DNA of 64,000 nt from a virus: IMG/VR virus record IMGVR_UViG_3300016476_001289; one strand, written 5' to 3'. The notes beneath the pieces are model-generated. The model was not told the origin of the DNA and made no database searches. It saw only the letters and a program-made list of their open reading frames with translations. This document shows, one piece after another, positions 25,914 to 56,509 of the stretch (positions are counted from its first letter, which is position 1; every line of letters starts with the position of its first letter). The position numbers and the translations under genes are program-made.

Positions 25914-26153
25914 ATGTTTACACAAGCTGAAAAGTTAAAGATGATTCGTTTAGCAATGTTGAAAAAACAAGCTAAAAATTTACCTAAAGAAGTAGAAGAA
26001 AAAGCGAAATTACTTATAGATAAAGGCTATGATGTAGGTAAAGCATGGGCAATTTCTTGGAGCATCTGGTGTCGTTACCTCAATCCAAAATCAGAACACT
26101 GTCATATGAGACCTAGTGATTATTTTAAAAGTCGTAAGAAAAAGAAAGTTTAG
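25914..26153 (+). CDS. small basic protein with tag motif
   Basis: MIRLAMLKKQA leader followed by a KAWAISWSIWC core. Confidence 0.7.
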   Translation: MFTQAEKLKMIRLAMLKKQAKNLPKEVEEKAKLLIDKGYDVGKAWAISWSIWCRYLNPKSEHCHMRPSDYFKSRKKKKV

Positions 26154-27496
26154 TATTTAATTAACACATTATATAAGATACCATCTTCTAATTTGTCAAT
26201 GGTAATTTCAAGGTCTTGGGATTGGGTGAGATCAAGTTTATCTGCTTTAACTTGTTTAAGAAGGATTTGAGAACCTTTCTTTAAGGTGATATTTAGATCA
26301 GTAAAGCTAACCATTCTCTCTTCGGAAGTAATAGCTTCTTTAGGTTGTTCTTTTACAACTTTAGGTTGTTCTTTTACAACTTTGGGTTCTTCCTTTACAA
26401 CTTTAGGTTCTTCCTTTACGACTTCTTCAACTACAACGATAGGTTCAATAGTAGGTTCATCTTCAACTACAACGATAGGTTCTTCAATATGAGAAGAACC
26501 TACTACAACAGACACTTGTTCTTCACCATGAATGACATGAAGTAGATCACTCACTTCTTTTCTCAATTCATCAGGTAATCGAGAATTGAAAACACTCTTA
26601 AAACAATTATTCACCCTAGATTGATTCTTAGTATGTTCAACATCTATATGCTTATCATCAAAGAATGAATAAATCCATTTAGATTTTAATTGTAATGAAC
26701 ACTTTTTACGAATTTCTGTTAAATAGGTTTCAGTGTATTCAATAAGTTCATCTACATAGTAAGTATAAGAATCACCTAGATTTTCTCTGACTTTATCAAA
26801 CCAAAAATCTTTATTCTCCTTTTCATCCATAGAATGAAAAGGGAAGTAAGAGTAGATATTATTATCTACTAATGATTTGAAAGTATCATAGTATAGGTAA
26901 GTAGCAGTATCTTTTTTAGGTTCAATCACTTCGATCCCCTTGTCTAATTGCTCTTGTAATTTAAGTGCTTTTGTCTTTTTCATTTCTTGACCAATGTCAT
27001 ACATACGAGTTGACCAATTTTTGAAATCCTCAACAGCATTTAAAATTTTCTGTGTTGTCTCTAACATGGGAATATTTAATCTTTGTGATTCTTTTTTAGC
27101 CCACCCTCTTAAAGCATGACTTGCCATATCTTTCATTAAGAAAACAAATTCAGCAGAATCAGGAATAACACCTGTTGCTCTTCTCGCAGGTAATTTATGT
27201 CCAATTAACACAAATTCTAATCCAATAGCATCAGACATTTGGGGAATCCAATTATCTCTAACTAAAGGATGGTGTCCTCCTACTACATAAGTTTTAACTC
27301 TTCCTTCTTCTTTTCTTAAATTCTCTTCTGCTCCTTTTACTGATTGGAGTGATAGTGCCATCATTTTATGGGGTAGCATTGGCATAGACATTTGCTTAGG
27401 GTCTTTTACATCAACCATTTTTGTTCCTTTTTTTAGGGGGTCCGCATTGTGTTCAATAGTTAGTATGTTTGTATCAAATACAGACATTATAGTCAA
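26150..27496 (-). CDS. DUF2325-like domain protein with Pro/Val/Glu repeat linker
   Basis: YVVGGH...IPDSAEFVFLMKDMASHAL...AKKESQRLNIPML resembles DUF2325; C-terminal domain shared with 27493..28458. Confidence 0.65.
   Translation of the reverse strand: MTIMSVFDTNILTIEHNADPLKKGTKMVDVKDPKQMSMPMLPHKMMALSLQSVKGAEENLRKEEGRVKTYVVGGHHPLVRDNWIPQMSDAIGLEFVLIGHKLPARRATGVIPDSAEFVFLMKDMASHALRGWAKKESQRLNIPMLETTQKILNAVEDFKNWSTRMYDIGQEMKKTKALKLQEQLDKGIEVIEPKKDTATYLYYDTFKSLVDNNIYSYFPFHSMDEKENKDFWFDKVRENLGDSYTYYVDELIEYTETYLTEIRKKCSLQLKSKWIYSFFDDKHIDVEHTKNQSRVNNCFKSVFNSRLPDELRKEVSDLLHVIHGEEQVSVVVGSSHIEEPIVVVEDEPTIEPIVVVEEVVKEEPKVVKEEPKVVKEQPKVVKEQPKEAITSEERMVSFTDLNITLKKGSQILLKQVKADKLDLTQSQDLEITIDKLEDGILYNVLIKY
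26340..26423. repeat. coding tandem repeat, 4 x 21 bp (KEEPKVV/KEQPKVV)
   Basis: Plus-strand unit TTAGGTTGTTCTTTTACAACT and variants; no spacers. Confidence 0.9.
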
Positions 27497-28458
27497 GATA
27501 AAATAGATAAATTTAGTAATTTACCATTTTCAATGGAATCGACTTGGATATTAGCATTAAGGCTAACATTAGTAGCTTTAACTTCTTTAATAGAAAGATT
27601 AACACCTGTATTAAAAACTAAGCTGAAATTATCGAGAGAGATAGATTTCTTTTCTTGTTTAGGAACATAAACAACATTAGGTAAAGATTTTAAAAAGTCT
27701 TTGGTTTCAGGTGATACTTCTTTTTCAAAATAGCTATTAAATAAAGATAGGTAATCATCTAATGATTGATTAGGATTAGCGTCAATATAACCTAGTATCC
27801 ATTGTCTAAAGAATTTTTCATTAAAATCAGGTTCTTCACCTTTAAGGATATAAGCTAAAGAGTCTCTTAGGTATTGAATAAGAGATAAATGAGTAGCAAC
27901 AACACTTTTAGTATTTGAGAGATTCTCTAATTCAATTTCAATGAATTTTTGAACATACTCATGTGCAAGTTTAAATTCTTTTTTCTTATCAAGGTCTTTG
28001 ATATATGGGAATAAAGAATAAAGGACTTTTACATCTTTAAGTAAGATATCTCTAAAATCTTTAAAAGATAAAGGCATGGGACCTACATCTTTTATAAGGT
28101 TTAAAGATTCAATAAACATTGCGAATGGGGGTAAAGCTTCAAAGATAGCTTTCTTTAAATTAGAAGCTTCTCTTTCATCTGAATAAATGAGAGGGCATAC
28201 ATTCTTTTCTTGGAAAGCACTAACAAGCTTAGTAACACTTAAAGGGATTTTATTCATATCACAATAGAATAAAACAGCACCTGTTGATTTAGGAATGTTT
28301 ATAATTTCTCTTTCTTCTAAAGAGATAAACCCATTAATCAAGAATGGGAAGTTCACTTCTTTTGAGAGGTCTTTTAAGAGTTCATCTCTGATAAAGGAGT
28401 AATCAGTTTTTGAACTCACTACAAAAAGCTCGATTGCTTTCTTGTCTATTATCTTCAT
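27493..28458 (-). CDS. hypothetical protein sharing a C-terminal domain with the downstream gene
   Basis: 321-aa ORF, GGAAAAG SD-like site; C-terminal ~50 aa similar to that of 26150..27496. Confidence 0.75.
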   Translation of the reverse strand: MKIIDKKAIELFVVSSKTDYSFIRDELLKDLSKEVNFPFLINGFISLEEREIINIPKSTGAVLFYCDMNKIPLSVTKLVSAFQEKNVCPLIYSDEREASNLKKAIFEALPPFAMFIESLNLIKDVGPMPLSFKDFRDILLKDVKVLYSLFPYIKDLDKKKEFKLAHEYVQKFIEIELENLSNTKSVVATHLSLIQYLRDSLAYILKGEEPDFNEKFFRQWILGYIDANPNQSLDDYLSLFNSYFEKEVSPETKDFLKSLPNVVYVPKQEKKSISLDNFSLVFNTGVNLSIKEVKATNVSLNANIQVDSIENGKLLNLSILS

Positions 28459-28493
28459 ATAGGCTTTTCCTTTTTTTATGAGATAGGGAGTTA

Positions 28494-28505
28494 GTGTGTT
28501 TGTAT
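28494..28505 (+). promoter_or_regulatory. 12-bp motif GTRTGTTTGTAT, copy 3
   Basis: GTGTGTTTGTAT-TATAAG in the divergent intergenic region; overlaps the -10 of the minus-strand sigma70 promoter. Confidence 0.45.
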
Positions 28506-28532
28506 TATAAGCACACAGCCTAATGAAGTCAA
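28504..28532 (-). promoter_or_regulatory. sigma70-type promoter TTGACT-N17-TATAAT
   Basis: Near-consensus -35 and perfect -10 with 17-bp spacer, about 45 nt upstream of ATG 28458. Confidence 0.75.
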
Positions 28533-28590
28533 TAATATTTTAATAATTTTTCTATAAGGTAAAGAACTTGTTGATAAGGAGTATATAAAG

Positions 28591-30203: not shown

Positions 30204-30205
30204 TC

Positions 30206-30682: not shown

Positions 30683-30687
30683 ATAAA

Positions 30688-32766
30688 ATGACATATAAAG
30701 GCACAATAGACGAAGATAAGCAAATAGTTATATCTCGTCCATTAAATGAGATGGATAAAAAACTCATTAGGGTTGCTTATTTGAATCCTGAGATGAGAGT
30801 AGCTACTTTAAGAATAGTAGCCGATGATGCGACAAATAAATTAAAACAATTTGTAGGGGATAAGAAATGGAAGAATCCTGAGACAAATAATTTAATTGGT
30901 TTTGATCGTGTAATAGAATTAGCTTCAAAAGATAAGATGTGGGCAAAGGCTATTTTAAAAGGAGTATCTGAAAACTATAAAAAACAAGAAGCTAGTAAAG
31001 GTGAAAGTGGTGGAGATAGTGATACAGGGGTACAAAATAAAATAGTCAAGAAATTAAAAGGGGATGTAGAAAACGAGATTAAGAAATTTAAGGGTTCAGG
31101 AAAAGACATAACTAATCCTAAGGATAGGGCTGAATTTGAAGCTTATTTAGATGAAAAGCTAGGGCCTGCACAAGAAGAAGCATATAGGGCAAAAGTTAGA
31201 GAAGCTACGGGTTTGGTAGATGAAGAATTTAAGAAAGCATCTGAAGGTTTAATGGGTAAAGGTATGAGAAAAGCTTTGAGTAAAACCTTTGAAGATTTAG
31301 GTTTGCAAAAATTCTCAGACTTGGTGAAGCCTAGAGAGATTCCTAAAGAATTGGGTGAAAAAGCTACAATAGTTGGTGCTGGGATATTAGGACAATTAGG
31401 TTCAGCTCTTATACCTACAGCAGGTGTAGCTAGTCAGGGTGCATTAGCTACTATAGGTTCTTGGTTAGCTAGTGGTGCATCTGCAGTATTATTATCTCCT
31501 TTTATGTTTGCAGCAGGTGCTGCTCTTTCTTATAAAGTCTATAAGAATTATAAAGAGACTCCTGAAGGTGCTGAAAGAGCTAAAATTAAGGCAACCTTTA
31601 ATAAGAAAAAAGAAGAACTCGTAAAAAAATTAGAGAGAGAAAAAAAATACGAAGATATAGGAATAGAAAAAAGCACTATTGATGGGTTAAAAGAATTTTT
31701 TAAAGAAGATAAGTTTGACGATGAAATCTTAGGTGATGATTTAACCATTAAAGAAGTATTGGAACTTTCTGAAAATGGTGATGTTGAAGAAAAACAAAGA
31801 GCAAAAGTCATACTTGAAGAAAAAAAGAAAGATTATTTAGCAGCTAAATACTCTCGTCAAAAATTCTTAATCCAAGAAACAAAAGGCAAAAAATTCCAAA
31901 CTCCTGATGGTAAGAGAATTAGTGTTAAAGAAATGTTGGATCTTGAAGAAAAAGGGGATAGTTGGGCAATAGATAAACTTAAAGATTTAAGACATACTAT
32001 TGAAGGACCAGAAGAAGAAGAAAAAGAAGAAGATAATGAATCAAGTAGTATGTTAATTTCTAATAACGATGTAGATAGATATAGAAATATGTCTGTTCAA
32101 AATCTTGATCAAGAAATGGCGAATTCAAGTTTTGAAGAGATCGAAAGAATGGAAAGACAATTAGCAGATTTATCTGAACCTGAACCAAAACCTACTAGAA
32201 CCCCTAAAACCACTAAAAAGAAAAGAAGAACAAGAAAGAACATAGATACGGGTATTACATCTGAGGATGCTAAAGTAGTTTTAGAAGCTATGGGTAAAAT
32301 TAGAAAAGACCAAGAAAATATGGAGAATAAATACAAGAATGAGACTTTCACTAATCCTGATGGTAAAAGCATTGCTTTCAATACATTGAAAAAATACTTT
32401 GGAGATAAAGACCACAAGCATCATGATTGGGCTGAAGGAGAATGGAAGAAATTAAAACAGAGCATGAAGAAAATGGGTGCTGAGAAAAAAGACCAAGATA
32501 AAGAAATGGACAAGATAGTTAAAGAGAAATTTGAAAGTGCTTTAACTATTGATCCAAGTGTAATAGAACTTTTTAAAGCAATTAGCACGGATGGTAAATT
32601 TGACCAAAAGAAATTAGATGAAGTTATGAAAGGCATTTCAGAATTATCTAAAGAATTTAATTCTGGAGAAAAGAAAAAAGCAAGTATGGATAGAGCATCT
32701 CTAATTAAACTTGCCTACCATAACCCCGATATGAGAAGCGAAATCCTAAAATTATTGATTAAATAA
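30688..32766 (+). CDS. large charged protein with tag motifs at both ends (probable internal head/ejected protein)
   Basis: LIRVAYLNP at N-terminus, LIKLAYHNP at C-terminus, central hydrophobic Gly/Ala segment. Confidence 0.8.
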   Translation: MTYKGTIDEDKQIVISRPLNEMDKKLIRVAYLNPEMRVATLRIVADDATNKLKQFVGDKKWKNPETNNLIGFDRVIELASKDKMWAKAILKGVSENYKKQEASKGESGGDSDTGVQNKIVKKLKGDVENEIKKFKGSGKDITNPKDRAEFEAYLDEKLGPAQEEAYRAKVREATGLVDEEFKKASEGLMGKGMRKALSKTFEDLGLQKFSDLVKPREIPKELGEKATIVGAGILGQLGSALIPTAGVASQGALATIGSWLASGASAVLLSPFMFAAGAALSYKVYKNYKETPEGAERAKIKATFNKKKEELVKKLEREKKYEDIGIEKSTIDGLKEFFKEDKFDDEILGDDLTIKEVLELSENGDVEEKQRAKVILEEKKKDYLAAKYSRQKFLIQETKGKKFQTPDGKRISVKEMLDLEEKGDSWAIDKLKDLRHTIEGPEEEEKEEDNESSSMLISNNDVDRYRNMSVQNLDQEMANSSFEEIERMERQLADLSEPEPKPTRTPKTTKKKRRTRKNIDTGITSEDAKVVLEAMGKIRKDQENMENKYKNETFTNPDGKSIAFNTLKKYFGDKDHKHHDWAEGEWKKLKQSMKKMGAEKKDQDKEMDKIVKEKFESALTIDPSVIELFKAISTDGKFDQKKLDEVMKGISELSKEFNSGEKKKASMDRASLIKLAYHNPDMRSEILKLLIK

Positions 32767-32812
32767 ACTTTCTATATTCATACTTGTATAAAGATAGTAT
32801 GTATATAGGAAG
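32764..32812 (+). promoter_or_regulatory. late-promoter motif inside a 16-bp hairpin covering the SD
   Basis: CTTTCTATAT-T-CATACT / loop TGTATAAAGAT / AGTATG-T-ATATAGGAAG; TAAA-CTTT-CTAT in the 5' arm, TATAAA in the loop. Confidence 0.6.
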
Positions 32813-32818
32813 GTCTTT

Positions 32819-35800
32819 ATGAACGACATTAAAAAATCACTTATTAAAATTGCTTATACTAACCCTAATTTAAGAAAAGATATTATTGAGATCACTCAAA
32901 AATCAGAAAACAAAGAACAATTTATAAAAGGTATTATTAAACTTGCTTACCATAATCCTGAAATTAGAGAAGATGCTTTAGTTTTCTTAAAAGAAGCAGG
33001 TTCAGGTAAACAAGAAAAAAGACTCAATAAGTCTTTTTCTGAAGGTAATGCAATGGGTGGGAAGTATAATAAAAACAAATCAGAACAAAAGCCTAAATCA
33101 GATATACCTGTTAGTATTTACAACTCAGCTAAAAACAACACATATAGTAATATTAATCTTAAAGACTATGTAGACAAAGAATTAAATGGTAAAACTTTAC
33201 CTAACCCTGCTCTAAAAAAGAATCCTAATGCTAAAAAAGAAGTAGCAATATCGACTATTTTTAACCATATCACTAAAAAAGATGAATTTGCTGAAGATGC
33301 AAAACAAATAATACAACCTTATCTTGAAGCTATTGTGAAACAATACGAATCTGATACAGGTGAAAAAGGTGAAAGTAAAGGAAAAGAACAACAAGTAGAA
33401 CAAGGTCAACCACAACAACCTACTGTTGAAGGTTCACCTAAATCGGTGGTTGAACAAACTAATCAAAAATTAGAAGAAGAACTAGATACTAAAGCAGACA
33501 AGATTGTTGATTTACCCGAAGAACAACAAGAACAAGAAATAGAAGAAGTCGCTTATGGAACATTAGAAAGTACGGTTTCTAATGTGTTTGATAGCTTAGG
33601 TGTTCCTAATGCTAAAGAAGTAGGTGAAAGTGTAATACAAGGTAGAAAAGAAGATAGAGAAGAAGATAAAAGAATAGAAAAAGAGAAACAAGAAATAGAA
33701 AACCAAATAAAAGAAGATCGTAATCATGGAATAAAAGAAACAATAGATGAAGTTGAGCATATAGACTTTGAAACTATGATGCCTGATCTATTTAATAATA
33801 TAGATAAAGACATAAAATGGAATGATGATGAAGATTACTTAAAAGATGATGCTTATCCTCAAAAATTCTTAGATCTCTCTGATGTTATTCTTTCCGACCC
33901 CACAAAAGAGAATATTATAGATGGTATAAATCATCTTCCTGAACCTATACAAAGAGAACTTGTAGAAGACCTAAAAGAAAATGGGGTAGATAAAAAAACT
34001 TTGGGGTTTCTTTCAATTACTTTTAAAGTCCTCTCAGAATCAGTTGGAGAGACTTTTTCTCATATGAAAGGAATATTTCATTCTATTAAAGATGGGTTTT
34101 CTTTTCCTGAGTTAATGTTTGATGATGATAAAATAGCTAAAGCAGATGCTTATTTAAGAGAAAGAGGTCTTCAATATAATGATAGTTATTTATTAGGAGA
34201 GAAAAGAGAAGAAACAATTAAAGCATTAAAAGAATTTCAAAGCTTAGATAAAACAAAAAATATGTTTCAAAAAGATTTACCTAAAGGTACAAGTACTCCT
34301 ATGCTTCCAAGTGTGGTGAAAGAGATAGCTAGTCTCAGAGGTAATATAAAAGATGATGATTTTAAAAAATTAGTGTCTTTAACTTTAGGTGGAGATGGCA
34401 AAAATATAACAGAAGAAATCCAAAATGGGTATACAGGTAACGCAGAAGACTTTAAAAAAGAATTTGAAAAACACAAAGATCTAATGGATAAGGCTAAAAA
34501 ACTAGGTGTTGATTTTGAAGGTCTTTCTAAAGATGAATCAAAGAAAGAAGCTTTAAATAAAGCAAATGACTTCCTAAAAGATAAAAACATCAACAATTCT
34601 TTAAAAAAAGAGATAGCAAAGAATTTTATGGAAGGGAAAATATCGGATAAAGATACAGAATTACTAGATAGGGTGTTAAAGAGAGAATTATCACCCGAAG
34701 ACAAGTTAATTGTAGATAAGCAAGATACGATGCTAGATAGTTTTAAGAAATTAAAACAAAATAGAGATAAGAAAGAACAAATTAAAGAATTTGCTAAGAC
34801 TCAAAATTATAAAGACGAAACTCTATTTAATGCACCATCTATCTCTTATGATGCCATAGTAGAAATGTCTAAGTCTAAAGACCCTGATGATAGCGAGTGG
34901 GCTAAAAAGAAATTAAAACAAATAGAAAAAGACTATGACAAAGATATAGAAGATAAAGCTCGTACGACACAAAAAGAAAGAGAAAATATAGAAGCTTTAT
35001 TTAAACCTGAATCGGAAGGTGGAAAACCACTCAAAATTAAAGATGAACATGGAAATAAATATACCATAGAAGAAATATATGATATGGCAGATGACCCCTC
35101 TGACCCTAAGAAACAATCCTGGGCTTCTAAGCAATTAAGTGATATTAAAAAATCTATGTCTGGAGAATTAGATGCTTCGGAATCTGAAATGAAAGAAGAA
35201 AAGCATAAAGAATTGAAAAAAGACAAAGAAGATTTAATCAAATCACATGAAGATAATAAAAGAAATTTAATAGTAAAGCATACACAAAAGCTACAAGAAG
35301 TACAAAAAGACTATGATGATAAAAGAAAGAATATAGAAGATAGCACAAACAATGATATTAAAATTAAGACCAATGAAATTAATGAAGGTTTAAGAGATAA
35401 GAGAATGGAATCCGACTCTGAGATACATGAGATTCTTAAGAATAATGGATTTGACTATGAAGATAAAAAACAAAAGATAAATGAAGATTATGAAAGTGAG
35501 ATAGCAGGGGCAATTGGAGATGGTGAGAAGCAAAAAGAAATTACAGATAAAAGAGAAAAAGCTTTAAGTGCATTAGATAAAGAGAAAAAAGATAAAATCA
35601 AAGCTATACCTGAAGCTAAGACGATAGAAGATGGGTATGTTGCACATGAAAAAGCTAAAAAAGGTGTTCTTCAAAGAGCAATAAATAAAAAGAATAAAGC
35701 TAAAGAAGATGCACTAAAACAATTAAAAGATGAACATGAATCTACTGTAAAGAACGAAGAAGATAAACATAAAGTAGATATTAATACCGAAGAGCACAAG

Positions 35801-36766
35801 CATAAAAAGAAAGTAAATGAAATAAGCAAAGGATTAGGTGAAAAAGTAGAAGATGATGAAGACTATTCTGATGATGAAAAAAAGATTCTTTCTAATATAC
35901 CTAATAAAAAGAGAACAGAACTACAAAATAATATGCAAAAGCATTTTGAAAATTTAGACTTTGAAGATTTAGACGATGACGAATTAGAAGATGAAACAGA
36001 AAGTTTTGTGAAGAAGAATAAAAAGCTTTTTAAAGGTATGGATTCACCTGAAGCCGTACTTGCTGCTAAGATCTTACTAAGAAACTATAAAGAACCAAGT
36101 AAAGAGAAATCTTCACCTAAGAAGACTAAGGGTAAAGGTACGAGTAATAGTACTAGTAAAGCAGAAACATCTCACGAAGATGAAAGTATGACACAATATT
36201 TTTCAGGTAAGAAATTCCCTGTAACACAGAAATTAAGCAATGGTAAAGAAGTAAAACACGAACTAGAGTTTAAAAGTTTATTAGCTTCCTATAGAAAAGC
36301 AAAATCTAAAGATAATATGTTTAGTAAAGAATATAGTGATCAAGTGATAAAATTATATGAAGATGCTAAAAAAGAATATGAAACATCTAAAAAGAATAAA
36401 AGAGCAAGTATGAATCTTACTTCTAAAGATGATAAGAAAGAAAAAATTAAACAAAAGATAAGAGAAATGAGTAAATTTGAGGAGAAAGACTTTGAAGAAC
36501 TTAAACCTTATTTTGATGATAATTTAAAATTTGATAAAGAGAGATACTTAGAAGATAAGAAAAAACAAAGGAAAGAAAAGAGTAAAGAATTAGAGGAACA
36601 TAGAAACAATTATGAATTGAAAAAGACTAAAGCAGAAGTACAGAAATTGAAAAAACAAATGTTAATGATGTCTTTTGGTAAAAAAGCATATATTAAAAAC
36701 CAATTAGTAAAAATTGCTCTATCTTCAAGAGAAGAAATTAAGAATCTAATTCTCCCACTTATTTAA
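32819..36766 (+). CDS. very large K/E/D-rich protein with tag motifs (probable internal head/ejected protein)
   Basis: 1315 aa; LIKIAYTNP and IIKLAYHNP at N-terminus, LVKIALSS at C-terminus. Confidence 0.8.
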   Translation: MNDIKKSLIKIAYTNPNLRKDIIEITQKSENKEQFIKGIIKLAYHNPEIREDALVFLKEAGSGKQEKRLNKSFSEGNAMGGKYNKNKSEQKPKSDIPVSIYNSAKNNTYSNINLKDYVDKELNGKTLPNPALKKNPNAKKEVAISTIFNHITKKDEFAEDAKQIIQPYLEAIVKQYESDTGEKGESKGKEQQVEQGQPQQPTVEGSPKSVVEQTNQKLEEELDTKADKIVDLPEEQQEQEIEEVAYGTLESTVSNVFDSLGVPNAKEVGESVIQGRKEDREEDKRIEKEKQEIENQIKEDRNHGIKETIDEVEHIDFETMMPDLFNNIDKDIKWNDDEDYLKDDAYPQKFLDLSDVILSDPTKENIIDGINHLPEPIQRELVEDLKENGVDKKTLGFLSITFKVLSESVGETFSHMKGIFHSIKDGFSFPELMFDDDKIAKADAYLRERGLQYNDSYLLGEKREETIKALKEFQSLDKTKNMFQKDLPKGTSTPMLPSVVKEIASLRGNIKDDDFKKLVSLTLGGDGKNITEEIQNGYTGNAEDFKKEFEKHKDLMDKAKKLGVDFEGLSKDESKKEALNKANDFLKDKNINNSLKKEIAKNFMEGKISDKDTELLDRVLKRELSPEDKLIVDKQDTMLDSFKKLKQNRDKKEQIKEFAKTQNYKDETLFNAPSISYDAIVEMSKSKDPDDSEWAKKKLKQIEKDYDKDIEDKARTTQKERENIEALFKPESEGGKPLKIKDEHGNKYTIEEIYDMADDPSDPKKQSWASKQLSDIKKSMSGELDASESEMKEEKHKELKKDKEDLIKSHEDNKRNLIVKHTQKLQEVQKDYDDKRKNIEDSTNNDIKIKTNEINEGLRDKRMESDSEIHEILKNNGFDYEDKKQKINEDYESEIAGAIGDGEKQKEITDKREKALSALDKEKKDKIKAIPEAKTIEDGYVAHEKAKKGVLQRAINKKNKAKEDALKQLKDEHESTVKNEEDKHKVDINTEEHKHKKKVNEISKGLGEKVEDDEDYSDDEKKILSNIPNKKRTELQNNMQKHFENLDFEDLDDDELEDETESFVKKNKKLFKGMDSPEAVLAAKILLRNYKEPSKEKSSPKKTKGKGTSNSTSKAETSHEDESMTQYFSGKKFPVTQKLSNGKEVKHELEFKSLLASYRKAKSKDNMFSKEYSDQVIKLYEDAKKEYETSKKNKRASMNLTSKDDKKEKIKQKIREMSKFEEKDFEELKPYFDDNLKFDKERYLEDKKKQRKEKSKELEEHRNNYELKKTKAEVQKLKKQMLMMSFGKKAYIKNQLVKIALSSREEIKNLILPLI

Positions 36767-36804
36767 TTTTTCATTTATAGGATTCTTATTTATGTATTCA
36801 AAAA

Positions 36805-38223
36805 ATGAGGATTATGATGAGAGTAATAGCTAAAGAACGATCAGATGATGAAAAAAAAGAGATTTATGACAAATGGCATGATCTTATTAATATGTCTGAG
36901 AAAGAATTAGTCGAATGGGGTAAGAACCCCGACCATCTTGAAGCTTCTTTGAATAGAGAAGAAGCTAAAGACAATGGGAAAATACAATCAGGATATGACT
37001 CATTCCATAGAATTAAAAGAAGAAAAGATAAACCCTTTGAAGATTGGACAGCTCAAGATTTTGACAATGCTAGTCAAGAGAATGGGTTTAATGGTCGTAT
37101 GCTTGGTGGCAATCCTGGTAAAACTGTAGGTTCAACTGGCATGAGTAAATGGGAAATCTCATTAAGAAATTGGGGACATGATCCTAGTAAACCTAATAGT
37201 CCTTCATATAAAAAATGGAAAAAATGGAAGAAAGAAAACGAGGAAGAAATTAAAATGAGTCTAGCTAAGAAAAAGAAAGCAAATCTAATATCCGATTTGT
37301 ATCAAATGAGTTTTAAAGTTAAAGGTGGTGAGAAACTAAGACAAGCTTGTTTAATGTGTTTAAACACTAAAAAAGCTAATGCTATGGTTATTACACCCGA
37401 GTTAATTGACTCATTACCTGAAGATAAACAAGAAAAATTAAAATTTGATGTTTTAGTTGCTCACTTAGATCAAGTAAAGAAAGACATAAATTCTCAAATA
37501 GGTATGAGTATAGATATTATTAAGTCTTACTTACAAGATAAAGGTCTTTTTAATGGTAAAAATCTTTTAAGTATGGGGCTTAAAAAGCCTATTAATATTC
37601 TAGAACAAAAAACTATTCAAATCTTAAATTCTTTTGCAGATAAAAAAGACCCTTATTCTTTATTGAAATTTACAAGTGCTTTAATTGCAGCAGACACACC
37701 TGAAGAAGTAGCTACCTTAATCAAATTGCCTGTTTCTGAAATACAAAAAGAAATACCACTAAACAACTTAGGTGAGAAAAGTGAAAAAGGGGTTTCTATT
37801 ATTATGGGTATGGATGAACTAAAATTTTTTGCTGTTAATTGCTCTCTAAGTTTACTTAAAGTAGTCTTAATACAAGTAGTGTTTTTAGGTGCTACTATAG
37901 GTGGTGCTTTAATGCACCTAGTTCCTGTCCTTGTTGTTATTCTATTAATGGCTATCTTAACCGATTCTAAAACAACAGCTAATTTCTTAAAAAAAATGAG
38001 TATTGCTAGTACTGTTATTCCTTCGGTTCTTATTGCTAGATTAATCCCACACCTTAAACTAGCTTACAATAAAATATCCGATGTCTTAGGTGAAGCTTAT
38101 ACATGGGCTAAAGATAAAACTAAGTCTTTGTTTAATAGTAAACAAGCTGTTCTTAGAGAAGCTATTAAACTAGCTTCTTCTAATCCTATATTTTATAGAA
38201 TGCTTGAAGAAAGACTATGCTAA
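36805..38223 (+). CDS. DUF3140-like domain fused to a membrane segment, with tag motif
   Basis: WHDLINMS.KEL..W and WEISLRNWGHDP match DUF3140; C-terminal hydrophobic helices; AIKLASSNP tail. Start may be 36814. Confidence 0.75.
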   Translation: MRIMMRVIAKERSDDEKKEIYDKWHDLINMSEKELVEWGKNPDHLEASLNREEAKDNGKIQSGYDSFHRIKRRKDKPFEDWTAQDFDNASQENGFNGRMLGGNPGKTVGSTGMSKWEISLRNWGHDPSKPNSPSYKKWKKWKKENEEEIKMSLAKKKKANLISDLYQMSFKVKGGEKLRQACLMCLNTKKANAMVITPELIDSLPEDKQEKLKFDVLVAHLDQVKKDINSQIGMSIDIIKSYLQDKGLFNGKNLLSMGLKKPINILEQKTIQILNSFADKKDPYSLLKFTSALIAADTPEEVATLIKLPVSEIQKEIPLNNLGEKSEKGVSIIMGMDELKFFAVNCSLSLLKVVLIQVVFLGATIGGALMHLVPVLVVILLMAILTDSKTTANFLKKMSIASTVIPSVLIARLIPHLKLAYNKISDVLGEAYTWAKDKTKSLFNSKQAVLREAIKLASSNPIFYRMLEERLC

Positions 38224-38322
38224 ATTAAGGATAGAAACCACTTATAATTTAATAGAGGTGAACCTAAAATTTTATTTTCTCTATTATTAAACCTATACTA
38301 AGATACATAGGAGTTAATAATA

Positions 38323-39318
38323 ATGAGCAAGATACTGAAATCACTTATTAGGCAATCTTACAACCTACCTAATGGAGATAAGTTAAGACAAGCTAGTTTA
38401 GAATATGGGTATATTCACAATAGTTTTAAAAAATCTTCTCTTGACACAGCAAATGAAATGTTTTGGGTATCTGAAATTGGAAAAGACTATAGTAATAAAT
38501 TTGCTTCCGAATTTGTTATGTCAGAATCTCTTAAGATAAATGTTTCCGAAGTACAACATATAATTGATGTAAATATAAGTCCTAGTGAAATGGCAAAATT
38601 GACTCAAGAAGGAAATGAAAAAATAGTCAAGAAGCTAATAGACAATCTCCCACCAGAATTACAAAAGACCCTTATTCAACACTTTCAAAAAAATGCCCAC
38701 CAAACTCCTTTTATTGCTACTCTAACCGCTTATGCACCCTGGATGGTAGGTTTTATTGTAGCTGCTATTATTACTTACCTTATCTATAAAAACCCTAAAA
38801 AAGCTAAAAAAATACTTGATTTTGGACTAAAACAAGTAAAAAATTTAGGAGTGATACTAGGAAAAGTATTAGCTACTAGTTATAAATGGCTTGTTATAGG
38901 TATAAACAAAACAATAGAAGTAGGAACACCTATTTTAATAGAAGGTGGAAAAATGCTTCTTAAAGGTCTAGGTCAAGCAGGTGAAATTCTCTTGAAAGGT
39001 CTTCAATTTGGTGGTAAATTACTATTAGAAGCTATTAAATACACAGGCACAACTATCCTACCTAAAGTTTTATCTACATTACTAGGTATCTCAATAGAAG
39101 CAATAGAAATATCTAGATGGCTTATAGATAGAGAAAGATATGGAGAAAGAACAGCAAATTATTTACAAAGACTAAGATCTGAAGATAAAGAAAAAGAAAA
39201 ATTACTTATGTATGTGAAACAAAATCTTAATAAAAGTAGAACTGCAAGATTGCATTTAATTAAAACCGCTTTTGAATGTGATTATAACTTAGGTAACTAT
39301 CTCCAAAAAAGAATATAA
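38323..39318 (+). CDS. membrane-segment protein, partial paralog of 36805..38223, with tag motif
   Basis: NGDKLRQASL vs GGEKLRQACL; TM-like APWMVGFIVAAIITYLIY; tail HLIKTAFEC. Confidence 0.75.
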   Translation: MSKILKSLIRQSYNLPNGDKLRQASLEYGYIHNSFKKSSLDTANEMFWVSEIGKDYSNKFASEFVMSESLKINVSEVQHIIDVNISPSEMAKLTQEGNEKIVKKLIDNLPPELQKTLIQHFQKNAHQTPFIATLTAYAPWMVGFIVAAIITYLIYKNPKKAKKILDFGLKQVKNLGVILGKVLATSYKWLVIGINKTIEVGTPILIEGGKMLLKGLGQAGEILLKGLQFGGKLLLEAIKYTGTTILPKVLSTLLGISIEAIEISRWLIDRERYGERTANYLQRLRSEDKEKEKLLMYVKQNLNKSRTARLHLIKTAFECDYNLGNYLQKRI

Positions 39319-39320: not shown

Positions 39321-39743
39321 ATGTTGTACTTCGCATATGGTGCTAATATAGATCAAAATAAGTTTTTAAAGAGATGCCCTCTTGCTAAAAACAAAGGTGT
39401 TTTTAAACTTAATAATTATCATATCTGTTTTATAGGAGTATCTTCTTTACATAATGGTAAAGGCGCTTCTACTATTGTCCCCAATAAAAACTACTATGTT
39501 GAAGGCATCCTTTGGAATATCCCCTATATAGATATACACAAATTAGATAGAATGGAAGGCTATCCACATAGATATAAAAAAATTAAATTTAAAACTCCTT
39601 ATGGTGAAGCTTTCACCTATGTTACTATAAGTCAAATCCAAAATGAACCCGATTGTAAATACTTTGAAGACATCTTGTTCTGGTATGAAATCTATGGTTT
39701 TAACAAAAAAAACCTTATTGATGCTTATATAAATTCTTTATAA
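39321..39743 (+). CDS. gamma-glutamylcyclotransferase (AIG2-like) family protein
   Basis: YFAYGANI, VEGILW, LDRMEGYP..Y motifs. Confidence 0.88.
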   Translation: MLYFAYGANIDQNKFLKRCPLAKNKGVFKLNNYHICFIGVSSLHNGKGASTIVPNKNYYVEGILWNIPYIDIHKLDRMEGYPHRYKKIKFKTPYGEAFTYVTISQIQNEPDCKYFEDILFWYEIYGFNKKNLIDAYINSL

Positions 39744-39789: not shown

Positions 39790-40782
39790 ATGATGAATAA
39801 AGAAGCTTGTATTATTGCTACGGGTGAATGGGGTGGAAGTCGTGTCTTATTTAAAAATAGAGATAGAAATTACTTACCCCCAGTAAAAGTATATCACGAA
39901 GTTATTAATGGTGTTGAAATTTTATATTATAAAGATGAACTCACAGGGTGGGTTGAAGGTATGAATGAATATGGTATAGGTCTCGTAAATGCAGCTTTGT
40001 CTGTTACTGATGATGAAAAAGAAAAAAATAGGGTCACTAATCCTAAAATAGTTGTCCTAAACAAAGACCCTAAAAAAGTTCTCAAAGCACTCCAACAAAA
40101 AACTTTAGATGAAGCAGTAGAAACCATTTGTAGCTATCTTGGTGGTTTAACAGGTCACACTTTCGTATCTGATGGTGTTGTTACTAAATCTATTGAACTC
40201 ACTAAAGAACATGGATGTATTGTAAAAACCCTTAGAAATGGTGGCATCCATGTAAGAACTAATCATGGTATTAATCACGAAGAAGCAGGTTATCAAGAGG
40301 GGGTTAAAAGAGATAGTTCTGTTATGAGAAGAAATAGAGCTATCCGTAAATTAAAAGAAGTTCAATATGTTGAAGATGTAGCACCTACCGTATATGGCTA
40401 TCGTGTAGGTAAAGACCCCTTTAATCCTCTAAATATGGTAAGAGATAGTAAAGAAAAAATAGATATGAAATCCACTTCCCAAGTCGTTATGGATTTAAGT
40501 AATAAAAAAATGTATCTCTATCTCATTCCTAGAAAAGTTAAATTCTTAGGATACTACAAAAACAATAATGTTAAAAAACCTAAGTGTGAATTGTCTGTTA
40601 TTAAATATACAGGTATTAAAGAAGATGGCACTTTTGATATGGATATCGTAGATACTCTTGATTATGGGATTAAAGACTATATACCACCTTCTAAAAGATT
40701 AGCTTCTCAAATGATTAGAACAGCTATGCTTAAAAAAGATATTTTGTCGGGTCTTAATCCTGAAGTAAAAAAAAAAGCCTAG
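39790..40782 (+). CDS. Ntn-hydrolase (C45/C59-like) with a 6-aa leader
   Basis: MMNKEA|CIIA...KNRD...EGMNEYG...RTNH match the CBAH/C45-type Ntn fold; nucleophile Cys codon at 39808. Confidence 0.75.
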   Translation: MMNKEACIIATGEWGGSRVLFKNRDRNYLPPVKVYHEVINGVEILYYKDELTGWVEGMNEYGIGLVNAALSVTDDEKEKNRVTNPKIVVLNKDPKKVLKALQQKTLDEAVETICSYLGGLTGHTFVSDGVVTKSIELTKEHGCIVKTLRNGGIHVRTNHGINHEEAGYQEGVKRDSSVMRRNRAIRKLKEVQYVEDVAPTVYGYRVGKDPFNPLNMVRDSKEKIDMKSTSQVVMDLSNKKMYLYLIPRKVKFLGYYKNNNVKKPKCELSVIKYTGIKEDGTFDMDIVDTLDYGIKDYIPPSKRLASQMIRTAMLKKDILSGLNPEVKKKA

Positions 40783-41060
40783 ATTTAGAAGTTGAAGGTG
40801 AATATAAAGGTATTGGCACTAAGAGTAAATTTACCATAGGTGATGAAATTGTTAATTTAGAAGTGGATCAAGATAAGAATATCTTTATAAATTGTACTTG
40901 TGGGTTTTGGATATATCAAGGTTGTGAGTATCATGCTAAAACGGATGGGTATTTATTAGGTTCACCTCAAGGAACGGCTAATAAACCTAAAAAGAAAGAC
41001 CCTGAAGGTGAAAATAGAGTATGTAAACATACTTATGCTGTGTTAAATAAGATTAAATAG
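40764..41060 (+). CDS. SWIM zinc-finger domain, in the -1 frame relative to the Ntn-hydrolase end
   Basis: NCTCGFW...CKH SWIM signature; frame is open from 40764 across the A10 run with no ATG (track uses GTG 40863). Confidence 0.7.
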   Translation, partial: SKKKSLDLEVEGEYKGIGTKSKFTIGDEIVNLEVDQDKNIFINCTCGFWIYQGCEYHAKTDGYLLGSPQGTANKPKKKDPEGENRVCKHTYAVLNKIK

Positions 41061-45468: not shown

Positions 45469-45747
45469 ATGAATAAACAGTATTTTATCAAGGAAGCTAT
45501 GCTTAAAAAAGCTAAGACTAAAGATGTTAAAGAAGCTATTGCTAAAGTATATCAAATGAAATTAAGCATTATGCAAATTAGAAATTCTTTAGGTTATAGT
45601 GGACCAGGTAGCTTACTACAAACAGGAACAGGTGGAATAAATATTTCACAAGAAGACTCTAGTGGGCATATTAAGACTGCACTTAGAAATCTTGATAATG
45701 CTGCTCTCCTTATTGATGAAGCATATAAACACTTACTTGAAAGTTGA
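45469..45747 (+). CDS. hypothetical protein with tag-like leader
   Basis: AAGGAG SD before ATG 45469; leader YFIKEAMLKKA. Confidence 0.7.
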   Translation: MNKQYFIKEAMLKKAKTKDVKEAIAKVYQMKLSIMQIRNSLGYSGPGSLLQTGTGGINISQEDSSGHIKTALRNLDNAALLIDEAYKHLLES

Positions 45748-51529: not shown

Positions 51530-52417
51530 ATGAGTGTAGTTTTTAAAAGAGGACAAACCCTTAGTCGTGGAGATTTAGACCTCTTCTTGACTAATAGTAG
51601 TGGTAATGTCGCTAATGCTGCAGATATAACCTATGCTATCTATTTCTCCGATAATCAAGTAGATGTTCTCATAGGTGACCCAGCTAGAATACCCGAAAAT
51701 CCTGCTGTCGGGGAATATTATGCTTCTCTTAGAATACCTGCCACTGCTTCCTTTGGTACTTATAGAATAAAATGGGCAATTAGGGAACTTGTTAATAGTC
51801 CTATTCAAAATGTAGTTCAAGAATTTGGTGTTGTAACAGAGGACTCTATTGTAAGCTACGGTATGTCTGAATCTATGAAGTCAATGGTAGATAAACTCAG
51901 AATATTACTTAGGGACAACAACCCTGATAAATTTTACCATTTCAGACCACCTGAAGCTGAAGCTGTTGTAGGTCAATATAATAGAGTCTTCGGTCAAGTA
52001 TGGGAAGATTATGAATTAATGGAATATATAGAAAGAGCTTTAGACTGGTGGAATATGATGCCACCTGAAACTGAGAATTACCGTACCGTAGAAGTTCTAG
52101 TTACTCAAAAACCTGCTTGGAGAACACCTATATTGCAAGGTGCTATTGTATTCGCCGCTATGGCACTACAAGCTAACTGGATTGTTGATGAGTTTGATTA
52201 TTCTATTGGGGGTATATCTCTAAATATAGATAAATCATCTAAATACGAGGGTTTAAAGAGTAGTGCTGAAAGTCAATGGCAAACTGCTACTGAAATGAAA
52301 GCTAGAACTACTAAAATCATCAGAGGTCTTGTCCAACCTAAATATGGTATTGGTGTAAGATCAGCATTCGGTCCTGCTGTTGGTCGTGGTGTCCTATCCC
52401 CTAGAAACTTTATATAA
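51530..52417 (+). CDS. putative neck/head-tail adaptor protein with N-terminal Ig-like domain
   Basis: LRILLRD...EDYEL..YIERAL...DYSIGGISL resembles head-tail adaptors; family assignment is inferred. Confidence 0.55.
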   Translation: MSVVFKRGQTLSRGDLDLFLTNSSGNVANAADITYAIYFSDNQVDVLIGDPARIPENPAVGEYYASLRIPATASFGTYRIKWAIRELVNSPIQNVVQEFGVVTEDSIVSYGMSESMKSMVDKLRILLRDNNPDKFYHFRPPEAEAVVGQYNRVFGQVWEDYELMEYIERALDWWNMMPPETENYRTVEVLVTQKPAWRTPILQGAIVFAAMALQANWIVDEFDYSIGGISLNIDKSSKYEGLKSSAESQWQTATEMKARTTKIIRGLVQPKYGIGVRSAFGPAVGRGVLSPRNFI

Positions 52418-52435
52418 TAAGAAAGAACAATAAAA

Positions 52436-52750: not shown

Positions 52751-52754
52751 TTAA

Positions 52755-53376: not shown

Positions 53377-53378
53377 TT

Positions 53379-53397
53379 TGGTATAATGCCTTTATAT
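53379..53397 (+). promoter_or_regulatory. extended -10 (TGGTATAAT) overlapping late motif TAAT-GCCT-TTATAT
   Basis: Both patterns read directly upstream of ATG 53417. Confidence 0.45.
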
Positions 53398-53416
53398 CAT
53401 CAAAGGAGTTTATATC

Positions 53417-55301: not shown

Positions 55302-55357
55302 AATGAAATCCTTTGTAAGAAGTTTATATGTATTATATTATTTCAAGGAGTCTTATC

Positions 55358-56509
55358 ATGTTGAAAATATCTAAATCTACTCTAAATGAATTTTGGAAAT
55401 CCGTTGAGAATGAAACCGTTATAAACCCTGAAACTAAGAATAAGGTGAAACTCAAGTCTTTAAGACCTGAGAAATTTGATAGTCACAAACAAATTTTAAA
55501 ACAATATTGGGATCAATGGGAGAAATCTAATAAGTCAGAGACTGAGAAAAAACCTAAAAAGAAAAAGATAGACTTAAAAGACATCAAAGCTGACTATAAA
55601 AATGTACTCTCTAATGAAGAAGCCGAAGAGTCTTTTAAAAATCCTGAAGTATATAAAAAGAACTATATGGCTAAGACACCACAAGGTAGTCAATTACTAG
55701 GTACTAAACACTTAGATGATGATTCTAAAGAATGGATAGAGAAGAGTCTATTACCTAATGTTAAAGACTTTATAGAACAAGCTAAAAAAGATGGTAAAGA
55801 AATTGTTTTCTTAGGTGAAGGTGGGGGTGGTGATGGTGAGAATTATCCAGAAGGCACTGAGCAAGAACTTGTAGGGAATCTAATATTAGAAGCTGGAGGT
55901 AAAGCAGATACTTGGGATGGTAAAGATAACCAATTAGGTGATTATAACTCAGCGGTTTCTAAAGCTATGAAAAAAGATTTAGGCGCTACTGAAGGACAAA
56001 GAATGACTTTACAATTTGCTTTAAATGTAGGTCATGGGAATAACATTAAAGACGAGATGGAATGGTTTAATGAATTACCTAAAGAGATGCAAGAAGAAGG
56101 TGAGAAATTTTTAAGGGATAATGGATATGATGGTAAGTTCCCACCTAAAGGTAAAAAAGATGCTCAAAAATTATATGACTTAACTTTTCCTAGAGATAAC
56201 AATAAACCTGAACAGAAGATATCTCAACTTATGGATTATGCTAATGACTTTAGGGGTAAGACTATGATTAAGAAAATTAAAGAATATGAAGATCAAGGTA
56301 AAAGAGTTTTAGTTACCCCTGGTGCTTCCCATGTATATGCTTTAAGAGATAATTTTAAGAGTCCTTCACCTACAAATAAATCACCTATAAAATCACCACC
56401 TAAGAAACCTATAAATAAGAAAGCTCACCTTATAAGTTATGCTATTAAGGTGGCATATAAGAATATAGAACTTAGATCTAAGATTCTCTCTCTCTTAAAG
56501 AGACTATAA
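55358..56509 (+). CDS. tag-bearing protein with a possible TraB/TIKI/EreA-ChaN-like domain
   Basis: AAGGAG SD before ATG 55358; VFLGE...FRGKTMIKKI...VLVTPGASHV; tail AIKVAYKN. Confidence 0.7.
   Translation: MLKISKSTLNEFWKSVENETVINPETKNKVKLKSLRPEKFDSHKQILKQYWDQWEKSNKSETEKKPKKKKIDLKDIKADYKNVLSNEEAEESFKNPEVYKKNYMAKTPQGSQLLGTKHLDDDSKEWIEKSLLPNVKDFIEQAKKDGKEIVFLGEGGGGDGENYPEGTEQELVGNLILEAGGKADTWDGKDNQLGDYNSAVSKAMKKDLGATEGQRMTLQFALNVGHGNNIKDEMEWFNELPKEMQEEGEKFLRDNGYDGKFPPKGKKDAQKLYDLTFPRDNNKPEQKISQLMDYANDFRGKTMIKKIKEYEDQGKRVLVTPGASHVYALRDNFKSPSPTNKSPIKSPPKKPINKKAHLISYAIKVAYKNIELRSKILSLLKRL

Follow-up and report, generated by a model that had tools for sequence, protein, structure and literature searches.

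Tag copies in the window

The 64,000-nt stretch of DNA analysed here (the window) carries nine solid copies of a tag of about 25 residues on five unrelated proteins, with the core L-I-K-x-A-Y-x-N-P followed by a second helix. Five of the nine copies begin 20-22 residues before a stop codon and the other four are N-terminal or nearly so. The tagged genes, the copies and one doubtful site are as follows.

30688..39318, + strand: four tagged genes in succession (692, 1315, 472 and 331 residues), from the ORF list and homologue comparison
30751..30822, + strand: near-N-terminal tag of ORF 30688-32766, core LIRVAYLNP; 8.9 bits with its own protein left out of the profile
32689..32760, + strand: C-terminal tag of ORF 30688-32766, core LIKLAYHNP; 19.3 bits with its own protein left out
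32828..32899, + strand: first N-terminal tag of ORF 32819-36766, core LIKIAYTNP; 17.4 bits with its own protein left out, helical hairpin predicted
32921..32992, + strand: second N-terminal tag (tandem) of ORF 32819-36766, core IIKLAYHNP; 12.8 bits with its own protein left out
36692..36763, + strand: C-terminal diverged tag of ORF 32819-36766, core LVKIALSS; profile and position test
38149..38220, + strand: C-terminal tag-like end of ORF 36805-38223, core AIKLASSNP; profile
38332..38403, + strand: N-terminal diverged tag of ORF 38323-39318, core LIRQSYNLP (LIRQSY at 38344); absent from the initial annotation
39244..39315, + strand: C-terminal diverged tag of ORF 38323-39318, core LIKTAFEC; profile
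55328..56509, + strand: tagged gene with a Tiki/ChaN/TraB-like body, from body match and predicted fold
56429..56500, + strand: C-terminal tag of ORF 55328-56509, core AIKVAYKN; 8.9 bits with its own protein left out
40711..40779, + strand: C-terminal MIRTAMLKK of the Ntn-hydrolase-like ORF 39790-40782, doubtful as a tag; 23 residues from the stop codon

The copy at 30751..30822 begins at residue 26 of its ORF, which becomes residue 5 with Met22 as the start. The five C-terminal copies, taken in order along the window, begin 21, 20, 20, 20 and 22 residues before the stop codon and have K-K-A (at 32674-32682), K-K-A, K-Q-A, R-T-A and K-K-A ahead of them, respectively; the last of them also stands behind a Pro/Ser/Lys-rich disordered linker. 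The tandem copy at 32921..32992 terminates in K-E-A at 32990-32998.

A profile built from the nine copies scored its own members at 19-31 bits, and the next six-frame match in the window reached 6.5 bits. Furthermore, a loose regular expression for the core matched 12 times in the called genes of the window against 1.6 +/- 1.2 times in residue-shuffled proteins, and half of these 12 matches begin 19-23 residues before the stop codon (binomial p = 2e-8). With one protein at a time left out, recovery was good in ORFs 30688-32766 and 32819-36766, except for the C-terminal copy at 36692, and marginal in ORF 55328-56509; the copies in ORFs 36805-38223 and 38323-39318 were not recovered by this profile. 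These two ORFs carry diverged versions of the tag, which are supported by their position and, in ORF 38323-39318, also by more canonical termini in distant homologues (LIRVAYQAD at the place of the C-terminal copy). ORF 36805-38223 has distant full-length homologues with a more diverged terminus.

The initial annotation had listed eleven sites on about ten proteins. Eight of them (30763, 32701, 32840, 32933, 36704, 38161, 39256 and 56441) proved to be true copies and the shared tag is real, but the count becomes nine copies on five proteins, and MIRLAM at 25941, MIRTAM at 40711 and FIKEAM at 45484 matched none of the tag profiles. An Ntn hydrolase thus drops out of the tagged bodies proposed earlier, since site 40711 is not a profile-level copy, while the labels DUF3140 and 'TraB-like' were judged reasonable. 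A different motif of 24 residues is common to sites 25941 and 40711 (54% identity, E = 0.034 against a tiny database); it is found at the N-terminus of ORF 25914-26153 and at the end of the Ntn-hydrolase-like protein, and may be a variant of the tag consisting of the first helix only. In the Ntn-hydrolase-like gene, the presumed nucleophile Cys stands immediately behind K-E-A.

Distribution of the tag

The copies of the window are the low-GC form of a strongly conserved tag with the consensus LRSKLIRLAHxNPELRxxLLPLLK, which was found in distant huge phages with GC contents of 32-67%. Its profile matched 3,648 protein clusters at E <= 0.001, and 48 tag loci were found in IMG/VR. By position, 90 non-redundant copies divide into 64 at the N-terminus, 11 at the C-terminus and 15 internal ones. 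The 485-kb genome LR745208.1 holds 11 copies, 10 of them immediately behind the start codon, and an 84.9-kb relative contig gave 13 matches, with two further tagged proteins beyond the extent of the window.

All five tag-bearing huge genomes tested (222-536 kb) share one capsid protein of the phage G type at 75-93% identity, which belongs to the lineage of phage G, Tunturi_5 and the cluster C mycobacteriophages. As far as the searched sequences reach, the tag is restricted to a clade of huge phages with this capsid protein. The tag profile had no hits in phage G and Tunturi_5, both cultured relatives, and a tblastn search with the tag against 50,697 GenBank phage records matched only LR745208.1. 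In phage G, several head-module proteins begin with a short leader, M-K-R-L-I-K-K-A, which may be a distant analogue of the tag.

The motif had been noted as not previously described, and our searches agree. No Pfam or PHROGs family covers the tag in the window proteins, in 20 tagged proteins of relatives or in 119 representatives; the best match of the tag profile among PDB sequences had E = 0.44, with no similar DNA- or membrane-binding motif among those solved; and the tag strings had no match in the searchable literature.

Selection, predicted fold and modularity

Identity among the tags of LR745208.1 is 84% at codon positions 1 and 2 and 44% at position 3, and the tag is under selection at the protein level. 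A DNA or RNA element in place of a peptide was ruled out by this codon-position comparison and by the C-terminal copies, and recent duplication or gene conversion was rejected because synonymous sites are saturated. Across the GC range of 32-67%, the Ala, the N-P turn, the Arg and the L-L-P-L-L run are retained in >90% of copies, and such retention of single residues indicates a specific protein partner.

In the predicted structure of the 393-residue protein of ORF 55328-56509, the tag forms two helices (364-378 and 380-392) on a disordered linker. The tandem pair of ORF 32819-36766 was predicted as two hairpins (helices 2-14/16-28 and 32-45/47-59) that pack as one helical bundle, with good confidence (pTM) for a single-sequence prediction. 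The hairpins break at an N-P or N-I turn, and the consensus holds 5-6 basic residues.

The tag had also been proposed to be modular, terminal and attached to otherwise unrelated bodies, which is borne out by the 3,648 clusters and by the bodies themselves. The five bodies of the window, with tags masked, showed no significant similarity to one another. Homologues of the body of ORF 55328-56509 exist both with and without the tag, and two other proteins have its N-terminal domain and the tag but another middle part. Similarly, a tagged 134-residue protein of the 485-kb relative has a body that matches an 88-residue PHROG family lacking the tag region. Proteins with 2-5 tags and Lys/Glu/Asp-rich linkers between them are numerous, several proteins are tagged at both ends, and some mini-proteins consist of two tags only.

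The boundary between tag and body is marked by [KR]-x-A, which follows the tag in 54 of 64 N-terminal copies against a background of 10% and precedes it in 10 of 11 C-terminal copies against a background of 17%. The junction consensus is K-[EQTS]-A behind N-terminal tags and K-[KEQ]-A ahead of C-terminal tags. The [KR]-x-A might serve to cap the tag structurally and not as a cleavage site; to our knowledge, no prohead protease cuts after K-x-A.

Gene neighbourhood and link to virion genes

All tags of the window lie within the tail, connector and sheath gene block and on its strand. ORF 55328-56509 sits between a homologue of a head-tail connector (51530-52417) and a 'minor tail' homologue (56768-58129), and in a complete relative the equivalent slot is filled by four tagged genes. 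In a complete 437-kb genome, 12 of 16 tags fall into a 31-kb stretch together with the protease, capsid, connector and minor tail/neck genes (p = 2e-11). Tagged genes are scattered across the 485-kb genome and across four of the five relatives that are complete or large. Across the five tag-bearing huge genomes, 46 of 47 tags are on the strand of the capsid gene, an agreement that may reflect only a general strand bias.

The prohead protease of the clade (PHROG 18299) ends in a conserved T-L-[IV]-R-L-A-K-L-L-S in 60 loci, and this end aligns with the first helix of the tag (hhalign P = 0.008 over 7 columns), a short and only nominally significant similarity. A tagged gene within 2.5 kb upstream of the capsid gene occurred at only 2 of 69 capsid loci, both in the same genome, and the idea that a small tagged gene always stands between protease and capsid gene as the scaffold was rejected as generally valid. 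When the 485-kb relative's capsid protein and residues 1-45 of the tagged 134-residue protein neighbouring it were co-folded, the score was nil, below the mark, which is neutral on binding.

Bodies of the tagged proteins

Within the four-gene block 30688-39318, three proteins have hydrophobic, membrane-like segments and one is extremely rich in Lys and Glu. Tagged bodies diverge fast, with 51-86% identity against 97% in a neighbouring structural protein, and in three window proteins the tag is conserved no better than the body. Searches of the bodies in Pfam and PHROGs gave almost no functional matches, and the two bodies tested had no direct homologues in the 485-kb relative. Elsewhere, tagged bodies include WGR domains, pentapeptide repeats, a RelA/SpoT-like protein and a ParB-like nuclease. 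With their membrane-like segments, highly charged giant protein, enzyme folds and fast divergence, the tagged bodies resemble internal or ejection proteins.

Discussion

The tag lies at protein termini, is modular and is linked to the virion gene module. The principle of a targeting tag is already known from T4, phiKZ-like phages and P22 and from encapsulin analogues, and the surprise lies in the form, spread and multivalent architecture of the present one. In T4, the internal proteins IPI-III and Alt carry a capsid-targeting sequence (Mullaney and Black 1996; reviewed in PMC9026906). Like the tag, it is a short transferable peptide on otherwise unrelated proteins; it is thought to target them to the prohead core and to be removed at an adjacent protease motif, and the T4 bodies are fast-evolving injected proteins. 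The T4 sequence, however, has about 10 residues and is strictly N-terminal, whereas the huge-phage tag has about 25 residues, is predicted to form a hairpin and occurs at either or both termini and in tandem, with 26 of the 90 non-redundant copies C-terminal or internal. Its junction is [KR]-x-A and not the gp21 motif L/I-x-E, the two peptides have no sequence similarity, and the capsid proteins are of the T4 and phage G types, respectively. Giant phages related to phiKZ likewise pack many head proteins with removable extensions, among them paralogous families near head genes, and propeptides have been described on their head and ejection proteins (phiKZ gp175, SPN3US gp245; PMC5694885, PMC10052503, PMC7411985). 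These extensions form a heterogeneous set whose defining feature is the cleavage motif S/A/G-x-E and not a single conserved docking module, with no common 25-residue tag described, while the clade examined here combines the [KR]-x-A junction with a PHROG 18299 protease, in place of one of the gp175/gp245 type, and the phage G capsid lineage.

A likeness in shape exists to the P22 scaffolding protein, whose basic C-terminal helix-turn-helix binds the inner face of an HK97-fold capsid; foreign fusions to it load procapsids, and multivalency drives assembly. The tag is likewise predicted to be a small, basic, terminal helical hairpin; homology to P22 gp8 was not detected in the profile search of PDB sequences. 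The P22 hairpin belongs to one protein, the scaffold, which exits intact without proteolysis, whereas the tag is on many proteins and is probably cleaved. Encapsulin cargo-loading peptides, found at the C- or N-terminus of unrelated enzymes, dock inside an HK97-fold shell via a flexible linker, but they are extended peptides of about 10 residues that remain uncleaved, serve cellular nanocompartments and share no sequence similarity with the tag. The HK97 prohead protease is reportedly targeted into the prohead by its C-terminal part, and the C-terminus of the clade's protease is related to the first helix of the tag. The HK97 region is specific to the protease and not shared with cargo, and the similarity between tag and protease spans only seven residues.

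We consider it somewhat probable that the tag serves head loading and may be cleaved off, with the T4 capsid-targeting sequence and the P22 scaffold hairpin as comparable cases; head binding, packaging, cleavage and injection of the tagged proteins are what we infer. The tag would be a self-contained hairpin with a first helix (core L-I-[KR]-h-A-[HY]), an N-P turn and a second helix (core L-R-x-x-L-L-x-L-L), joined by flexible linkers to unrelated proteins, at either terminus or at both. It would most likely dock on a conserved component of the assembling head (for instance the scaffolding core, or the capsid protein on its inner face), by which tagged proteins would be built into the procapsid and later exit with the DNA, and the prohead protease would probably remove the tag at the [KR]-x-A between tag and body. 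Judged from sequence, the earlier idea of a zip code that brings cargo into the head is consistent with the virion-gene block, the clustering in the 437-kb genome, the [KR]-x-A junction and the protease half-motif. Mini-proteins made of two tags make no sense as cargo, so an additional scaffold idea is needed, and proteins with several tags and charged linkers may be part of the scaffold itself. In a doubtful though possible extension of head loading, contacts between tags, or between tag and capsid, would let multi-tag proteins with charged linkers polymerise into the internal core of these very large heads, one-tag clients would be packed and injected, and the protease would dissolve the network at [KR]-x-A.

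The same multi-tag proteins with charged linkers, the two-tag mini-proteins, the tagging at both ends and the bundle predicted for tandem tags also suit a rather unlikely alternative, in which tags bind each other or a hub, multi-tag proteins being multivalent scaffolds and single-tag proteins clients, and in which the assembly need not be a capsid: it could be a hub for assembly or replication in the cytoplasm, or a condensate formed during infection. The scatter of tagged genes across most genomes and bodies untypical of virions (WGR, pentapeptide repeats, RelA/SpoT-like, ParB-like nuclease) point the same way, but self-association outside the head leaves unexplained the boundary motif, the head-neck concentration in the 437-kb genome, the terminal half-motif of the prohead protease and the strict co-occurrence with one capsid lineage, and within the procapsid it becomes a version of head loading.

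Less probable still is a role in processing or unfolding only, with the tag as a docking site for the prohead protease or a phage AAA+ chaperone/protease that marks proteins for cleavage, activation or turnover without targeting them. Tags are indeed terminal, exposed and on flexible linkers, [KR]-x-A adjoins them, the presumed nucleophile Cys of the Ntn-hydrolase-like gene follows K-E-A, and a ClpXP-like pair, a possible partner of this type, is reported from phage G, with ClpP and ClpX in its virions (PMC12484599). Known degrons and protease exosite motifs, however, fall far short of a 25-residue hairpin in length and conservation, proteins with several tags or with nothing else are difficult to account for in this way, no Clp-type gene was seen in the window, and a half-motif on the protease itself suits co-localisation better than substrate recognition. 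A tether to phage DNA or the host membrane, in the form of an amphipathic hairpin, would fit the basic and amphipathic character of the tag and the membrane-like hydrophobic segments in three of the five window proteins, but such tethers tolerate drift, while the retention of tag residues speaks for a specific protein partner, and the PDB profile search found no resemblance to a solved DNA- or membrane-binding motif; we regard this role as very improbable.

Hardly any huge phages in the 200-700 kb range have been cultured, and for the majority of their genes no function is known. The tag is a protein module missing from Pfam and PHROGs and a candidate peptide for loading foreign proteins into capsids of the phage G type. 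If head loading is true, the tag on 3,648 clusters would sort much of the dark matter of huge phages into one class, probably head-internal or injected, in which anti-defence and host-takeover functions are expected, and would give a testable model of how very large HK97-type heads recruit their contents. If multi-tag scaffolds and one-tag clients do build an internal core, the whole injected proteome of the clade, comprising thousands of families, could be deduced from sequence data, and very large capsids could be loaded with foreign proteins by using the tag as a ready-made handle.

Tag Copies in the Window

Nine copies of one tag family, a two-helix module of about 25 residues with the core L-I-K-x-A-Y-x-N-P, were confirmed on five proteins of the window, and the tag is a real and conserved feature. 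Translation bore out the motif at the positions where the initial annotation had placed it; its count of about ten copies comes to these nine, and the three sites of M-I-R-x-A-M type (MIRLAM at 25941, MIRTAM at 40711 and FIKEAM at 45484) were detected by no tag profile.

Tagged proteins of the window
ORF 30688-32766: one near-N-terminal and one C-terminal tag
ORF 32819-36766 (1315 residues): two tandem N-terminal tags and one C-terminal tag
ORF 36805-38223: one C-terminal tag
ORF 38323-39318: one N-terminal tag, missed by the initial annotation, and one C-terminal tag
ORF 55328-56509 (393 residues): one C-terminal tag

With the nine-copy profile, the copies themselves scored 19-31 bits, and no other six-frame match in the window exceeded 6.5 bits. 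A loose regular expression had 12 matches in window genes where 1.6 were expected, and six of the 12 began 19-23 residues upstream of a stop codon (p = 2e-8). When one protein at a time was left out, recovery was good for ORFs 30688-32766 and 32819-36766 and marginal for 55328-56509, and the diverged tags of ORFs 36805-38223 and 38323-39318 were not recovered. As a separate observation, the N-terminus of ORF 25914-26153 (79 residues) and the C-terminus of the Ntn-hydrolase-like ORF (40711-40779) have in common a 24-residue motif with 54% identity, M-I-R-x-A-M-L-K-K ... N-P/L-P ... E-V, which is kept in an 84.9-kb related IMG/VR contig (the relative contig) and is closer to the half-tag of the prohead protease, described below, than to the full tag.

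Anatomy and Predicted Fold

Among 90 non-redundant copies, 64 were N-terminal, 11 C-terminal and 15 internal, and several proteins, including three of the five in the window, were tagged at both ends. The best-kept positions were the Leu/Ile/Arg/Leu/Ala run of the first helix, the N-P turn, one Arg and L-L-P-L-L in the second half, the second-half prolines being missing in the low-GC lineage of the window. In AlphaFold2 models, the 393-residue protein ends in a tag of two helices (364-378 and 380-392), separated from a confident body by a disordered Pro/Ser/Lys linker (345-361); for the tandem tags of the 1315-residue protein, a pair of hairpins packed into a single bundle was predicted (single sequence, pLDDT 82, pTM 0.71).

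Every one of the best 150 representatives, a sample skewed to multi-copy proteins, held 2-5 copies, joined in multi-tag proteins by linkers with a high content of Lys, Glu and Asp. Some proteins, 63-86 residues long, were two tags and nothing more. P0153 (63 residues) and P0131 (86 residues) had two tags and little besides; in the set formed by these two with P0015, P0018 and P0026, tag-rich proteins use recurring short motifs between tags (G-C-E-K-L-P-E-G-P-M-R-D-N-C, D-E-P-Y-M-K-G-x-F-T and E-V-P-E-A-F-K-x-Q-W).

The motif [KR]-x-A spanned the tag end in 54 of 64 N-terminal tags (background 10%) and preceded 10 of 11 C-terminal tags (background 17%); in all five C-terminal copies of the window it lay 3-6 residues upstream of the core. 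Without exception it lay on the side of the tag that faces the body, and this mirror symmetry is the pattern that would be expected, judging from sequence, if the tag were cut from the body, or hinged to it, at this site.

Modularity and Tagged Bodies

The tag is a protein-level, modular element. Codon positions 1 and 2 were 84% identical among the tags of the 485-kb phage LR745208.1, an uncultured relative, against only 44% at position 3; the difference between the two excludes a nucleic-acid element, and the low third-position identity excludes recent copying. Homologues of the 55328-56509 body that bear the tag were 88-92% identical, those lacking it were 35-37% identical and terminated precisely at the body end, and a third group kept the N-terminal domain and the tag around a different middle. 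Likewise, the body of a tagged 134-residue protein matched a family of 88 residues in PHROGs that lacks the first 50 residues. The tagged bodies had been described as unrelated, and they remained so after the tags were masked; those of 119 tagged representatives matched just 21 Pfam families, each in at most two proteins.

Several further features of tagged proteins were observed. Residues 86-343 of 55328-56509 resembled the Tiki/ChaN/TraB/GumN-like fold (Foldseek against AlphaFold clusters, E = 3.5e-6 to 1e-3), with no solved structure matching at E <= 0.001 in Foldseek. The N-terminal approximately 145 residues of ORF 36805-38223 (36805-37250) make up a further module of very high conservation (60-87% identity). 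About 70 other huge-phage proteins carry it fused to C-terminal parts that differ widely and that, by precomputed Pfam annotation, include AAT-type Ntn hydrolase, GGACT/ChaC, Cupin_8/JmjC, acetyltransferase, NIF phosphatase, SWIM, DUF3140 and DUF5661; this module may be another carrier or adaptor domain. The same enzyme types are free-standing just downstream in the window:

39321-39743: gamma-glutamyl cyclotransferase
39790-40782: Ntn hydrolase
40863-41060: SWIM-like protein

An extra 336-residue gene adjoins the orthologue of ORF 36805-38223 in the relative contig (G001, 40519-41526, minus strand) and ends in the same C-terminal tag-like sequence; the window has no such paralogue. One tagged family (L087:732-1796, minus strand, with L053, L064, L065, L066 and L071) is kept across the low-GC relative and high-GC phages; K-[ST]-A-M-E-F-P-S-x-E-A comes after the tag, as does Y-L-K-D-H-P-x-A-D-P in the relative, and the 355-residue member lies just beyond the left end of the window.

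Distribution of the Tag

The alignment of window copies found 13 matches in the relative contig and 11 in the 485-kb phage (GC 55%), where the tag reads (M)-T-T-L-R-S-K-L-I-R-L-A-H-E-N-P-A-L-R-P-Q-L-L-P-L-L-K-E-A and directly follows the initiator Met in 10 of 11 copies. The alignment of these latter copies reached 48 IMG/VR loci on about 30 contigs, many of 140-536 kb, and among 185,579 prokaryote genomes matched only three short metagenome-bin contigs. A joint profile (A4), run on 1.84 billion representative proteins, detected 3,648 clusters at E <= 0.001, of which 257 reached E <= 1e-10. No family for the tag exists in Pfam, PHROGs or PDB sequences, six tag strings were absent from the 8.4 million papers open to search, and two recent huge-phage reviews or genome papers do not mention it; as far as could be searched, the tag is undescribed.

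Association With Head Genes

The window (GC about 32%) starts with minus-strand replication genes, those of a DnaB-like helicase and an intein-bearing SNF2 helicase, followed by a long plus-strand run of virion genes, four of which were named by comparing them locally with Tunturi_5, an annotated jumbo phage. In the SNF2-family helicase (4641-6818, minus strand), the intein splicing domain (residues 120-265; Pfam Intein_splicing, E = 3e-10) is inserted ahead of the helicase core.

Virion genes named by comparison with Tunturi_5
7971-8678: virion structural protein
51530-52417: head-tail connector
56768-58129: 'minor tail' protein
from 60457: tail sheath

Among GenBank entries, the minor tail protein is closest to that of the 485-kb phage (48.5% identity). 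Since proteins identical to the window's own occur on a 371.7-kb contig, its source is a huge phage.

Conservation of the capsid protein found in the 485-kb phage is very strong: it is present in at least 491 IMG/VR loci, of which the best 80 are 89-100% identical, and its lineage includes phage G (37%), Tunturi_5 (48%) and cluster C mycobacteriophages (27%). It has 291 residues (L090:6001-6873; 80 loci L089-L168), and other genes of the clade have diverged much further, the protease, for one, to 34-57% identity. The same capsid protein was present (75-93% identity) in each of the five further large tag-bearing genomes tested, which have 7-16 tags each, with 46 of 47 tags on the capsid-gene strand. 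In a complete 437-kb tag-bearing relative, a single 31-kb region accounted for 12 of 16 tags (p = 2e-11), interspersed among the genes for prohead protease, capsid protein, connector and minor tail; its slot between connector and minor tail holds four tagged genes, and 55328-56509 occupies the same slot in the window. At its C-terminal end, the clade's prohead protease (PHROG 18299) has T-L-[IV]-R-L-A-K-L-L-S, conserved in 60 loci, and this motif aligns with the first helix of the tag (hhalign P = 0.008, seven columns). Two observations count against a link with the head, however: only 2 of 69 capsid loci had a tag in the 2.5 kb upstream of the capsid gene, and tagged genes are dispersed in most genomes.

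In phage G (L171, Bacillus phage G 9000-30000), several proteins of the head module start alike: gp13 and gp38 with M-K-R-L-I-[SK]-K-[TA], and gp17, at its annotated start, with a near-identical L-K-R-L-I-K-K-S. The sequence V-L-L-K-I-A-S lies close to the C-terminus of the protease gp19.

Possible Function of the Tag

The tag had been proposed as a zip code for loading proteins into the head, an interpretation that is partly supported, the function itself being unproven. Best supported is the reading of the tag as a docking hairpin, by which proteins would be brought into the assembling head: the tag would dock its carriers onto that structure and might be removed at [KR]-x-A, and multi-tag proteins would perhaps belong to the scaffold. 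Both the multi-tag architecture and the predicted packing of tag against tag support the main rival, a self-associating sticker that would gather proteins into some other assembly, but the junction motif, the clustering of tags in the head module and the half-motif on the prohead protease argue against it.

Functionally, the systems nearest to a docking hairpin are the T4 capsid-targeting sequence, the phiKZ/SPN3US propeptides, the coat-binding hairpin of the P22 scaffold and encapsulin loading peptides. The tag differs from them in length, position, junction motif, capsid lineage and sequence and belongs to none of the four; it is best classed with capsid-targeting or scaffold-type tags, as a variant form. 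The phage G sequences given above are possibly a short analogue of its first helix in a cultured phage, and, as a lead, the long hairpin may represent an elaboration of a leader shared across the phage-G capsid lineage.
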